Positions 6,030 through 64,000 of a stretch of 64,000 bases of DNA are shown one piece after another. Within the stretch, counting starts at the first letter, position 1, and the number at the start of each line of letters is the position of its first letter. This DNA comes from Paraspadella gotoi. Lineage: Eukaryota > Animalia > Chaetognatha. The translations under genes were made by a program, and so were the position numbers. Under the pieces are notes generated by a model. It made no database searches. It saw only the letters and a program-made list of their open reading frames with translations, and had not been told where the DNA came from. The stretch covers positions 2,555,476 through 2,619,475 of the forward strand of contig JBJCIZ010000239.1 of the NCBI GenBank assembly GCA_051294375.1. Reading direction: 5' to 3'.

Positions 6030-9000
6030 ATGGAGAGGCTGGAGCTTCCTCCTCCACCCGATGTCTCGAAGTCTCTTCGTTTCTTCCACTCTAACGCCAT
6101 GTTCTGTGACGTACGCCTCTGGCCATCTTCTACCGATGCCGCTGCAGCAGCAGCAGCGGAGTCTCCCAAGTATCTTCTTGTCCATCGCGTCGTCCTCGCC
6201 GCGTCCTCTTCTTATTTTGCCAACACATTCAAGAATATCGAGGAAAAACAGGATATTTTTCTTCCTTATTCAATTGATGGTAAATATCATCTTAAAAGTT
6301 ATGCCTATTTTGTTGGACGGTTTCTTGCAAAAACTTGGTATCATATGTAATCTCCTGTTTTTTTCGCATTAAGAAACAGAGACAAATGTTTTTTTTCCAA
6401 ATTACAAACGAACAAGAGGTAATTCAAATGTGTTACACCTTATCACATGTATTTTCGTTACATGACATGTCTTTTATTTCTTATTAGATTTAGGATTTCC
6501 TGAAGACGGCACTAGCAGTCTCTTAGATTTGAGGATTTTTTTCTGTCTGAACAAAGAGCAACAAACTATAGGCCAAATTATATGCATTATAACGTAGGTG
6601 GGACAGACTGACGGACAGACATACCGACCGAAGAGTGACGTATAGAGTTGCTTCGCGAGTACTCTCGGCACAACTAAAAAAAAACTACTCAACAGGTAAG
6701 GTTCTATCGTTTCTCCTCTCCTGGATGTACGGCCACCCTTTGGAAATTCAAAGGTCTAGCGACGCTCACAACATTTCATTTCTACAAAATTTGCTCGATG
6801 CCTCACAATGTCTAGGAATTGTTAATTTAGAGGCATATCTCGAGGGTGTGCTCGACCAATTTGGGGAAACCAAGCCGAAAGAGTTAGAGGACCAAGAGTG
6901 CATTTCCATAGTTGACGATGATCTTCAATTCACTGCCACTTCAGATTGCGAGAGCGACTCCGGAGGTAGAGGCTGCGATTCGGAAAACTCGATTGTCGAA
7001 ACTGAAACCAAAATCTGTAATAAAGATTCGCATACTCAACAACAAATCTGTAATGAAGATTCGCATACTCAACCACAAATCTGTAATGAAGATTCGCATA
7101 CTCAACCACAAATCTGTAATGAAGATTCGCATACTCAACTGCAATCGCAGATTGAAAACGTTAAAGTTGGCAAGAACGAGTTAAAATGCGAGAAGAAATA
7201 CCTTGCGAGAAATACCATTGATCCAGTTTTAGCGAAGCACATTGTCGACGACTCGTTTCAATGTTTAGTCTGCGAGTTTTCTTTGTCCAAAGTCAAAAGC
7301 GAACAAACATTTTTTTCTAATTGCGCCAAGCATCTCTACAAAGCTCACAAAATAACCTCCAAATTCTTTCATCATCCTTGTCCCGTGGAGGGCTGCAACT
7401 CAGGTGATGTTCTGCTTTACAAAGTTAAATAACCTTAAAGTGAATTCACTGTGACCGATTTTTAGTCAGATCTGCTTATCAGCAGATCCCGACTCTATAA
7501 TTCACTTTGTTGGTCCGTCGGTCCGCCCCCTAAAAATTGTCGGGCACACACTAAAATTTCAAAATAGTCTTTTTAAATTCTGATAAAAGATTCAGATTCC
7601 TCGTAAAAACTTGTTAAAAGAAAATATAACCCTTTTTCAAAGATTATGTCATTAAATAGGTTAAAATTACAAAAAACTATATTTTTAAGCTGGAAATTGA
7701 AAATCAGCGTCTTAAATATAGTTTTTTACATTTTTGACCAACATAATGAAAGAATTTTTAAAAACAAATTATACTTTCTTATATCAACTTTTTGTATGGA
7801 ATCTAAATCCGATCAGAAAATTAAAAAAATTGTATTTTAAAATTTTATCCTATTATATACTTATTACTATATATAAATATAGCTCACTGGCGCCCACTAA
7901 TGTATAAAATTAAAAAGTAAATTTACCAAAATATTTTTATTGGTGTTTATTTTCATGTTTTATATGCTAAATTTAAATTTTCTAAAATTTTATCATTTTA
8001 ACATCACTCTATTGATTATGCTTCTTTTTCTTTTTATATTAAATTTAAATGCAGGATGTATTAATTAATCAAATATTTAATCAGTTAATTAGACAATTAA
8101 TTAATTAATAATTAATCAATAATTAATTAATCAGTCAATCAATCAAGTCAATCATTATCGGCATTATTCTCATCGTCATTGCTTTTGTCGTGGTGAGTGA
8201 CGAAAAGACCTAAAAACAAACATTTGGGATTAATTAATTAATTAATTAACTTAAATTATTTAATTAATTATTTACGGATAATGATTGTAGGCAGATCCGA
8301 CATTGTTTGCTCAAACTTATTATATCCTTTCAGTGTTTTTCAGCCGTGTTGCTTGGACTGCTCACAATGCTCGCAAGCACAAGAGTAAGCGTAAAGATCC
8401 CATCGAACCCGTGAAAGTTTCCTGCGAAAAGTGTAACGCTGTCTTATTGAAAGTAAGTCTCAGGGAGCACAACTTAAGAAAGCACACTCAGGAAGGAAAG
8501 CATCCTTGCGAATTCTGCCTTAAGGTGTTTCCGAATGCCAATTATCTAAGCAGACATAAGAAAATATGTCACTTCCGAGAAAAAATATCTGAATTCAAAT
8601 GCGCTCATTGTAATTTTTGGGGTGCCAACAAAAATACCTTCGCTCATCATTGTTTTAGACGCCACGGAATCTTGATAAAAGAATTCAAGATTTTCGCGTG
8701 TCAAAGTTGTGATTACAAAAGCCCCGTGAAAAAAGTTGTGACTCTGCACGAAAGGACGGTTCATGTTCGGTCATTTGAGTTCAAGTGCGAGGTATGCGAG
8801 AAACGTTTTGCTACCAAAAGGCTGAGGAAGACTCACGTTGAAAGAGTTCACCAGGACTCTCAGGTTCGAGCATGCGTCAAGTGCGGACTCGTCTTTCGAT
8901 CCCACTGCGGAATGGAATATCATTTGTTGAAGATTCATCACATTGGGAAAAACGGGGCGAAAGCAGAAGACGACAAAGTCAGAATCAAAAAACCTTTCAA

Positions 9001-9187
9001 ATGCGCCTATTGCTCTCGCTCGTACTCCCTTCCGGGAAACGTCAAGAAACACTACAAGAACAAACATCCCGACAGACTTGTTCGATACGTGGACTTGCGT
9101 AAAGATTTAAAGGTGTCAAAGAATCGAGTCGGCGAATTTAATGATAATGTCGTACCCGAATGTCCCTACTCAAATGGAACCGGTTGA
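6030..9187 (+). CDS. BTB/POZ-C2H2 zinc finger protein, copy 1 (exons 6030-6279, 6696-7403, 8334-9187)
   Basis: BTB motif FCDVRL...VHRVVLAASSSYF, joined through GT-AG sites in consistent phase to SFLLSWMYG, then about 8 C2H2 fingers. Confidence 0.88.
6595..6684 (-). mobile_element. 5' end of a second HINE-like family in BTB-ZF intron 1 (paralogous copy about 10430-10530)
   Basis: Minus strand: T-run, AGTTG...GCAACTCTATA, then a GGTC/GTCY microsatellite. Present in both gene copies. Confidence 0.55.
7011..7140 (+). repeat. 30-bp coding tandem repeat (ICNEDSHTQP/Q), 4 units; 3 units in copy 2 (about 10855-10950)
   Basis: aaatctgtaatgaagattcgcatactcaac repeated in frame. Confidence 0.9.
7459..8321 (+). 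mobile_element. HINE-like insertion in intron 2 of BTB-ZF copy 1
   Basis: Both termini match the family. The paralogous intron in copy 2 (11424-11495) is the empty site ccgattttt|gtatcctttcag, with insertion in the T-run and no TSD. Confidence 0.9.
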
Positions 9188-9894
9188 CTAAATTTTTTTG
9201 AAATCTCTACCAAGTATTTTCAGAGTTTGCAAAGCTTGATATACAAATTTATTTGAATTATTTCTAGAATTTGTAGGTACCTACACCGAATTATGAATTG
9301 AATTTTAGATTCTTACCTCGAGTATGACCATTGTCAAGCGGTAAGAATATTATGAAATCGGGCGCAACAGCGAAATAAAACGCTTATCATAAATTTTTAC
9401 TTCGTGAAGATGGGAAGATGATCGGGTATGTTTAATAATAACCAATAGCATTTTGTCGACAAAGGAACATTATCTCGAAATATATTTTTGTTTACTTATC
9501 ACTTAGGTAAGGAACAAAATATCATCTTACCTTCTCTCGTAGCTAATGTGGAGAAAAGTAATGATGCCATCATGGCGGAGAACGGTGGCATCTTCATCAG
9601 TTTAACGGGACAAGAAGCCGTCAGCGATGTGTTGACCCTCAAAACATGATGATTTTGATAAATTTCATGAAATATAGTATTGTTTTAATTATTGTGTAGT
9701 TTTATCCGACTTCATGTTTGCTGAAACCTTTGGTCTGTTTCATTAGGTTTTACATTTTCATATGGAGCTTATTCAGCTCAATCGTCGTTCATACTTTATC
9801 CATTCTTTTTTGAATTTTCTAATAATTAATATATTTTATTTATTTATAAGTACAATCCGTTATTTTTATTACTTACCAAAAGTGAAGGACTGTT

Positions 9895-63045: not shown

Positions 63046-63646
63046 TCCCGTGACGCCTTCTTTCCTGGTTTACGTTAAATTTTCGAGAATCGATATCATT
63101 AATCAGCGGACCCCTGTTCAATAATAACACTCAAACTTCAGGTTGCATATTTTTTTTTACTAGAAACTTGTTAAGAGATAGGAGGTAGGATTGATGTTAT
63201 TGACCGGAAAAAAGATAACCGGGTTTTGTTACTATTTTGATTTTTGTGTCTTCACTTTTTAAAAGTCGTGATTAGACTATCGGTGCTTTCAGCTGGTCGT
63301 GATTTAAACCAACTACCTATACAATATTTGATGTAGATTTAGAATGTTAACACTAATTTTGGTTTTTTTTTCATTGTTTCACATAGTTTATAAATTCGTT
63401 ATTGTTAATTTAGGTCTATTTAGTCGAATTAAAAATGAAATTTTTTTACAAAACATTTTCTCTAATTGAATACGGATATTAGGATTATGAAGCGCAAAAA
63501 ATTCGACTCGCGACAATATGTTTGATGATGCCTTTTTTTTTTTGAAATAAAGGTAAGTGCTCTAAAAAAAATATATATTGAAAAATCTATTAAAAAAAAA
63601 ACGTAATGATCTAGTTTGTTCACAGCATCTTCACCACTGGGGAACG

Positions 63647-64000
63647 ATGCCTTTGGTTTCAAAGAAAAGCGCCTCGTTGGTTCTCGTCCGAGTTCAGACG
63701 ATGGACGCCGAACTCGAGTTTCATATCAGTTTTCAAAGTTTGGGACAAGAACTGTTCGACCTCGTTTGTAGAACCATCGGACTCAGAGAAACTTGGTACT
63801 TCGGCTTACAGGTGCAGTGAGGGAAGTTTTTTCTGAAAATAGTGTAAATTCTTTTATTTTTTTATAGTAATTGATGTTCTTACCGATTTCACCCGTATGT
63901 CAGGAAGAAACCTACTTTGCCCCTAATATTTAAATCTTTGAAATCCCCTCAGTTCGTCGATGAAAAGGACTACACGACCTGGTTAAAAATGGACAAAAAG
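63647..64000 (+). CDS. NF2: Merlin/ERM-family FERM protein, 5' part (truncated by the window)
   Basis: [33 protein letters not shown]...WLKMDKK, which are merlin-type residues. Confidence 0.8.

Follow-up and report, generated by a model that had tools for sequence, protein, structure and literature searches.

The 64,000-nt stretch of Paraspadella gotoi DNA analysed here (contig JBJCIZ010000239.1; hereafter the window) carries a head-to-tail array of 26 gene models, all located on the + strand between positions 6030 and 64000, which we read, on balance, as a likely chain of operons resolved by a spliced leader (SL) within a directional array. The array spans at least 58 kb and its right end is open, as the start of an NF2-like gene continues past the window edge. 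The whole window was read to build the gene models, which comprise 56 introns (most of them of 47–160 nt), and 60% of the array stretch is coding sequence. The encoded functions are mostly unrelated and of the housekeeping type. Gene names are based on Pfam domains, supplemented by named homologue matches for FAM136A, CHMP1A and ELL; the remaining names are presumptive. An earlier note on this DNA had placed every gene that it could assemble from 6 kb to the window end on the + strand and had the array leaving the window at its right edge, and both statements hold. Its figure of about 25 unrelated genes is amended to 26 genes plus a truncated TMEM170 copy, the first two genes being tandem duplicates.

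The one-strand array is real. Pfam matches on the + strand were found for 24 of the 25 genes scanned (all models except the second copy of the duplicated BTB-zinc-finger gene, copy B), the partial NF2 being the one without a match, and 35 of the 62 scanned pieces gave a match. On the minus strand, 137 of the 139 stop-free frames of at least 70 amino acids (aa) were compared with Pfam, yielding only two weak matches, both below the curated cut-off, while tRNA and Rfam scans of the window returned no matches. With the tandem pair counted once, the probability of a 25-gene one-strand run is 6e-8 if neighbouring genes share a strand at a rate of 0.5, and the expected number of such runs per 20,000 genes is 0.0006, 0.04 and 1.1 at rates of 0.5, 0.6 and 0.7, respectively. 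A strong strand bias, either genome-wide or local, is therefore needed, and below a same-strand neighbour rate of about 70% the run far exceeds what chance would give. That the array is an artefact of assembly or annotation, due to joined transcripts or missed minus-strand genes, is scarcely credible. Seventeen short minus-strand ATG frames (43–82 aa) inside spacers and introns, which were not individually excluded as genes, could be cited in its support, but the DNA contains introns (56 in the models) as well as repeats and a retroelement, the Pfam comparison of the minus strand gave no match above the cut-off, and an independent RNA run (X1, see below) is colinear with the window, with two letter differences outside a repeat over 7.8 kb. 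For the region 50.7–58.5 kb this colinearity largely refutes an artefact.

The 25 stop-to-ATG gaps measure, in array order, 707, 395, 604, 1312, 638, 248, 165, 682, 700, 220, 942, 248, 943, 251, 321, 269, 242, 664, 950, 139, 203, 107, 134, 453 and 601 nt. Eleven of them are very short (107–269 nt), and the other 14 (321–1312 nt) have room for a promoter. The eight gaps quoted in the earlier note (165, 139, 107, 134, 203, 220, 242 and 248 nt) were reproduced exactly; three further short ones separate the RING-finger gene from the gene at 37916 (248 nt), TRIQK from FAM136A (251 nt) and SPCS1 from CDC7 (269 nt). The hexamer AATAAA is present in one of the 11 short and seven of the 14 long spacers and is no commoner than in shuffles, so that its lack is uninformative, and a de novo search for words common to the spacers gave nothing convincing (at best CCACCG, in 5 of 24). 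An excess of T over A characterizes short spacers (+0.14), long spacers (+0.12) and introns (+0.14) alike, compared to +0.02 in the gene-free region 1–5300; it is positive in 24 of the 25 spacers, and the cores of the long spacers differ from the upstream region at p = 0.006. This intron-like strand skew indirectly supports a chain of co-oriented operons.

The RNA comparison covers positions 50700–58500, that is 7.8 of the 58 kb, and uses one public run (X1) of one study, which contains 0.76 of the sampled sequence words, while two other runs (X2 and X3) contain next to none. X1 is RNA, because its joints are splice joints: of 13 joints in this region, nine are GT..AG and equal all nine modelled introns, whereas the other four, three of which begin within a repeat, have low depth and short sides. 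The bin depths of X1 are consistent with zero cover of the non-repeat introns (arithmetic on the depth table). ZMAT2 intron 1 (54097–54360) appears in the X1 contigs as a very high-copy repeat, with a summed depth of about 56,000. The first of two contigs (4582 nt) starts upstream of 50700 and contains 764 unspliced nt 5′ of the AP4E1 start codon, out of the 950 nt that separate it from the Sp gene, followed by AP4E1, the spacer, ZMAT2, the next spacer and most of MED21. The second contig (5605 nt) runs from 56067 through ASPSCR1 and its 134-nt spacer into the start of FLAD1; by length arithmetic only, its remaining 3643 nt would accommodate what is left of FLAD1, then the 453-nt spacer and MTFR1, leaving 163 nt, and it probably crosses the FLAD1–MTFR1 gap. 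RNA-derived contigs are thus continuous over three of the four short spacers examined (139, 203 and 134 nt), while most of the fourth (107 nt) falls in a hole in the RNA cover at 55878–56066, which in itself proves nothing. No joint removes any part of the bridged spacers, which means that the AG sites there are not cis-intron ends in these contigs, and in the four genes checked by RNA no cis joint ends at an acceptor-like AG before the start codon.

These contigs could also represent stable, fully spliced but uncut multi-gene mRNAs, translated by reinitiation or internal entry, which we consider highly improbable. On general grounds, three long intron-containing open reading frames placed after earlier stop codons would make poor templates and be targeted for decay. 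Because rare paths with introns and short leader tips are discarded by assemblers, contigs of the same shape are to be expected under the other explanations as well. In environmental relatives, FAM136A and CHMP1A are found for the most part on contigs of roughly 1 kb. The bridging contigs do, on the other hand, lack all introns yet retain the spacers, and mRNAs of this kind are known in Drosophila (PMC2776167).

The tandem duplication at the left end of the array (Table 1) bears on how the genes are expressed. Copy B of the BTB-zinc-finger gene has just 91 nt of upstream DNA of its own, behind the truncated TMEM170, and lacks the promoter-like patch found before copy A. It is nevertheless intact, with a ratio of nonsynonymous to synonymous substitution rates (dN/dS) between A and B of 0.40 (p = 3e-6), and in a neutral simulation of an unconstrained copy the frame stayed open in only 3 of 3000 cases. 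Its retention fits expression by read-through and trans-splicing, and makes copy B a natural test case for promoter-free gene birth.

Splice sites were scored with a weight matrix derived from all 56 introns of the models. Acceptor scores average 5.46 over the final 100 nt upstream of the 26 start codons, compared to 4.0 in shuffles (none of 300 shuffles reached 5.46); the median score before start codons is 5.2 versus 3.8 elsewhere in the spacers (p = 0.005), and a comparison of acceptor-like sites in the last 80–100 nt before the start codons with windows after the stops gave p = 0.02. None of the 11 short gaps has a donor scoring above the lower quartile at a distance of 40 nt or more upstream of its best acceptor; in at least one case, that of PPP4C, a raised donor signal before the start codon is explained by a GT directly 3′ of the AG. 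The N-termini of the 49 homologous proteins listed have no extension common across genes.

Several observations weigh against a leader-resolved chain. A contig over two genes shows no single transcript, as overlapping untranslated regions (UTRs) or trace DNA could bridge the spacers; as to the read-through precursors named in the earlier note, the result is contig continuity across three short spacers, which is no proof of one precursor. UTRs, too, are expected to show a T skew, and the duplicated TMEM170 upstream region could drive copy B. The enrichment of acceptors before start codons is modest, reaching only p = 0.07 against the opposite strand, and the excess over whole short spacers is not significant (31 of 300 shuffles reach it). 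Donor-like sites are raised before start codons as well (the observed value is not exceeded by 298 of 300 shuffles), and a donor scoring at least 6 is present in three of the 11 short spacers. The start of the second contig (56067) matches neither AG before the ASPSCR1 start codon (56056 and 56073). The search for a leader, also suggested in the earlier note, was made in contig ends and in a relative: none was seen among the 6 of 89 loose contig ends viewed, all six from the ZMAT2-intron repeat, nor was one evident by eye in the 333 nt 5′ of FAM136A on contig L001 (1021 nt), the one locus obtained from 148 pattern matches in a metagenome scan for relatives.

If the genes were independent units of a compact genome, with a small promoter for each one in the 3′ end of its predecessor and no trans-splicing, overlapping UTRs would produce the joined contigs. 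The contigs cannot tell such overlap from a precursor, and the leader and acceptor results just described agree with it. However, independence leaves unexplained the 25-gene one-strand run and the missing head-to-head pairs, as well as the gaps of 107–139 nt and the duplicate kept with 91 nt of upstream DNA, and we regard it as improbable.

Candidate promoters were sought with consensus sequences of promoter motifs. The patch at 5.4–5.6 kb, which precedes gene 1, contains the non-coding 150-nt window richest in CpG, together with a GC box, CCAAT and TATA-like motifs. Weaker clusters lie before TENT2 (ETS, CCAAT and TATA, 15853–15961), TRIQK (CpG-rich, 41171) and AP4E1 (YY1-like, 51152), while none of the five promoter motifs scanned was found in the four short spacers of the AP4E1–FLAD1 block. 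The CpG-rich stretch before TRIQK (41160–41600) also holds donor- and acceptor-like sites and may consist of a promoter with untranslated exons.

In the proposed chain of operons, promoters would be much less numerous than the 26 head-to-tail genes that they serve, one of them lying putatively at about 5.4–5.6 kb and further ones in a part of the 14 longer gaps, with candidates before TENT2, TRIQK and AP4E1. The resulting operons, of about two to six genes, would give RNAs that are cut to single messages by SL trans-splicing, possibly coupled with 3′ end formation, with the acceptor-like AG upstream of each start codon serving as the splice site. Read-through and trans-splicing may moreover allow insertions and duplicates on the same strand to be expressed, while those on the opposite strand would be purged, extending strand uniformity beyond single operons. 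This corresponds to one of two possibilities raised in the earlier note, and it is backed indirectly by the RNA contigs, the acceptor-like sites, the skew and copy B; the other, a trypanosome-like polycistron, is neither shown nor excluded. Such a polycistron would consist of one giant unit, or very few, in which transcription by RNA polymerase II (Pol II) would begin near 5.5 kb and extend over at least 58 kb, the messages being released by trans-splicing as in trypanosomatids, and we consider it unlikely. It would account for the best promoter-like patch of the window lying directly before gene 1, for the intron-like skew in the cores of long spacers, for the contig covering 764 of the 950 nt between Sp and AP4E1, and for the probable crossing of the 453-nt gap. 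Against it stand the 14 of 25 gaps of 321–1312 nt and the motif clusters before TENT2, TRIQK and AP4E1. Figures published for Paraspadella gotoi in 2025 also oppose it, as only about half of the genes are trans-spliced and no operon exceeds nine genes when a 250-bp rule is applied; that trans-spliced half, together with the 18% of genes placed in operons, speaks for the operon chain (PMC12460157).

Long same-strand animal arrays have a precedent in a chaetognath clone table published in 2008. Of the 24 rows given for Spadella clone 35A21, which covers about 120 kb, all 14 oriented host genes are + and only transposon entries, four in number, are minus, in a table that lists only predictions with database matches (PMC2481426); this clone also favours a giant unit. 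The same paper reports spliced leaders and an operon in Spadella cephaloptera and remarks on other clustered genes of the same orientation. The words “strand” and “orientation” do not occur in the main text of the 2025 Paraspadella study, and 11 gene names of the array were absent from the three of its supplements searched; its operon spreadsheet, outside that search, may list them (PMC12460157). A literature search that covered few subscription papers found no paper describing long directional clusters in animals.

Among known systems, chaetognath SL operons resemble the array in their unrelated housekeeping genes on one strand with very short gaps, but the longest published one has nine genes compared to a one-strand run of at least 26 here, and a leader has been demonstrated there while none was seen here. 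The SL2 operons of Caenorhabditis share intercistronic distances of about 100 nt (median 99–105 bp; PMC7986045) and housekeeping genes of unrelated function (PMC2776167), but possess a dedicated SL2 leader, and the array spacers show no AATAAA enrichment. Ciona and Oikopleura operons are likewise packed head-to-tail and resolved there by one leader; those of Ciona differ in being mostly of two genes, at most six or seven, without intercistronic DNA (PMC7986045, PMC11067885), and no tunicate was found among the best 120 CHMP1A matches. Trypanosomatid clusters contain almost no cis introns and in this differ from the array, with its 56 cis introns (nine confirmed by RNA) and possible internal promoters. 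Being rich in cis introns, the array is strictly not a trypanosomatid cluster; the likeness lies in the long one-strand arrays of unrelated genes (PMC5814962). The array likely works like known animal operons, its membership among SL-resolved operons being unproven because the leader was not seen.

Animal operons have been described as short islands set by a distance cut-off. Taken with the similar, unanalysed run of the arrow-worm clone from 2008, the 26-gene run suggests that gene organisation has a level higher than the operon. It raises the questions of how many promoters an animal with trans-splicing needs and whether the order of genes over tens of kilobases is determined by Pol II read-through together with leader addition. 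It is doubtful that housekeeping genes of this animal are arranged in trypanosome-like directional clusters of 60 to more than 100 kb, with one or very few promoters, resolved by trans-splicing and rich in cis introns; if they were, the present run would exceed the longest published chaetognath operon about threefold.

Table 1. Genes and other features of the array in the window, with the basis of each assignment.
Feature	Position	Strand	Basis and remarks
Promoter-like patch before array (putative)	5400..5620	+	GC box 5479, CCAAT 5542 and 5584, TATA-like 5566
Tandem duplication unit 1 (BTB-zinc-finger A, truncated TMEM170)	5939..9800	+	self-BLAST
BTB/C2H2 zinc-finger gene A, 3 exons	6030..9187	+	Pfam zinc fingers; BTB by eye
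Tandem duplication unit 2	9804..12948	+	self-BLAST; begins 91 nt before BTB-zinc-finger B ATG
BTB/C2H2 zinc-finger gene B, 654 aa, intact	9895..12328	+	model, comparison with A
TMEM170, 3 exons	12724..13256	+	model, Pfam
ELL, single exon	13861..15759	+	model, Pfam, named homologue
TENT2/GLD-2-like poly(A) polymerase with double-stranded-RNA-binding motif	17072..19063	+	model, Pfam
TDRKH (KH, Tudor)	19702..21686	+	model, Pfam
YIPF3	21935..22928	+	model, Pfam; 248 nt 3′ of TDRKH
PPP4C	23094..24096	+	model, Pfam; 165 nt 3′ of YIPF3
RCC1, 9 exons, broken retroelement in last intron	24779..30710	+	model, Pfam
IPP-like BTB-Kelch	31411..33487	+	model, Pfam
SLCO/OATP transporter	33708..35852	+	model, Pfam; 220 nt 3′ of IPP
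RING-finger gene	36795..37667	+	model, Pfam
Gene with Tc5/CENP-B-type helix-turn-helix (HTH), 6 exons, 824 aa	37916..40796	+	model, Pfam; 248 nt 3′ of RING gene
TRIQK	41740..41994	+	model, Pfam
FAM136A	42246..42839	+	model, Pfam, named homologue; 251 nt 3′ of TRIQK
SPCS1	43161..43883	+	model, Pfam; 321 nt 3′ of FAM136A
CDC7-like kinase	44153..45997	+	model, Pfam; 269 nt 3′ of SPCS1
CHMP1A	46240..46848	+	model, Pfam, named homologue; 242 nt 3′ of CDC7
Sp1-4-like zinc-finger factor, 8 exons	47513..50513	+	model, Pfam
AP4E1-like adaptin	51464..53910	+	model, Pfam; intron confirmed by RNA
139-nt spacer AP4E1–ZMAT2	53911..54049	+	spanned by RNA contig 1
ZMAT2	54050..55164	+	model, Pfam; 3 introns confirmed by RNA
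203-nt spacer ZMAT2–MED21	55165..55367	+	spanned by RNA contig 1
MED21	55368..55968	+	model, Pfam; intron confirmed by RNA
107-nt spacer MED21–ASPSCR1, acceptor-like AG at 56056	55969..56075	+	mostly in RNA cover hole, unbridged
ASPSCR1	56076..58164	+	model, Pfam; 4 introns confirmed by RNA
134-nt spacer ASPSCR1–FLAD1	58165..58298	+	spanned by RNA contig 2
FLAD1, 6 exons	58299..60252	+	model, Pfam
MTFR1-like, 8 exons	60706..63045	+	model, Pfam; 453 nt 3′ of FLAD1
NF2/merlin-like gene start, runs off window	63647..64000	+	named by eye

The ratio of observed to expected CpG lies between 1.02 and 1.56 in the genes (coding-sequence median 1.33) and is 0.79 in the intronic retroelement. High gene CpG with a CpG-depleted retroelement would match the transposon-only methylation reported for Paraspadella (PMC12460157), a pattern not unique to the phylum. 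Close relatives of FAM136A and CHMP1A are proteins from JGI, ENA and Logan with 57–87% identity, while named CHMP1A matches are about 60–65% identical; no named chaetognath protein was among the listed homologue matches. In a CHMP1A tree of 22 picked rows, the window protein groups with six environmental proteins with a support of 100/100, apart from all named ones. FAM136A carries a C-terminal extension of about 55 aa rich in Pro, Gly and Met, common to its environmental relatives P0001–P0007 and absent from the shorter named matches, which may represent a clade marker.

Other features of individual genes were observed as well. The SPCS1 intron was modelled with a GC donor at 43305 (a GC-AG intron). 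In the TENT2/GLD-2-like gene the double-stranded-RNA-binding motif is C-terminal, and a segment of about 34 codons is repeated internally. The gene at 37916 has by eye a second HTH-like stretch near its C-terminus and may have arisen by fusion between a host gene and a domesticated transposase domain. The broken retrotransposon in the last intron of RCC1 (27480–29830) lies on the same strand as the array and has reverse-transcriptase-like and GIY-YIG-like stretches, appearing Penelope-like by eye, with no Pfam match on the five pieces scanned. Finally, short dispersed repeat families with tetranucleotide runs occur in both orientations at 1–5300, 6590–6680 and 7458–7564, and an element that resembles them by eye is found at 60–140 of the relative's contig L001, upstream of FAM136A.

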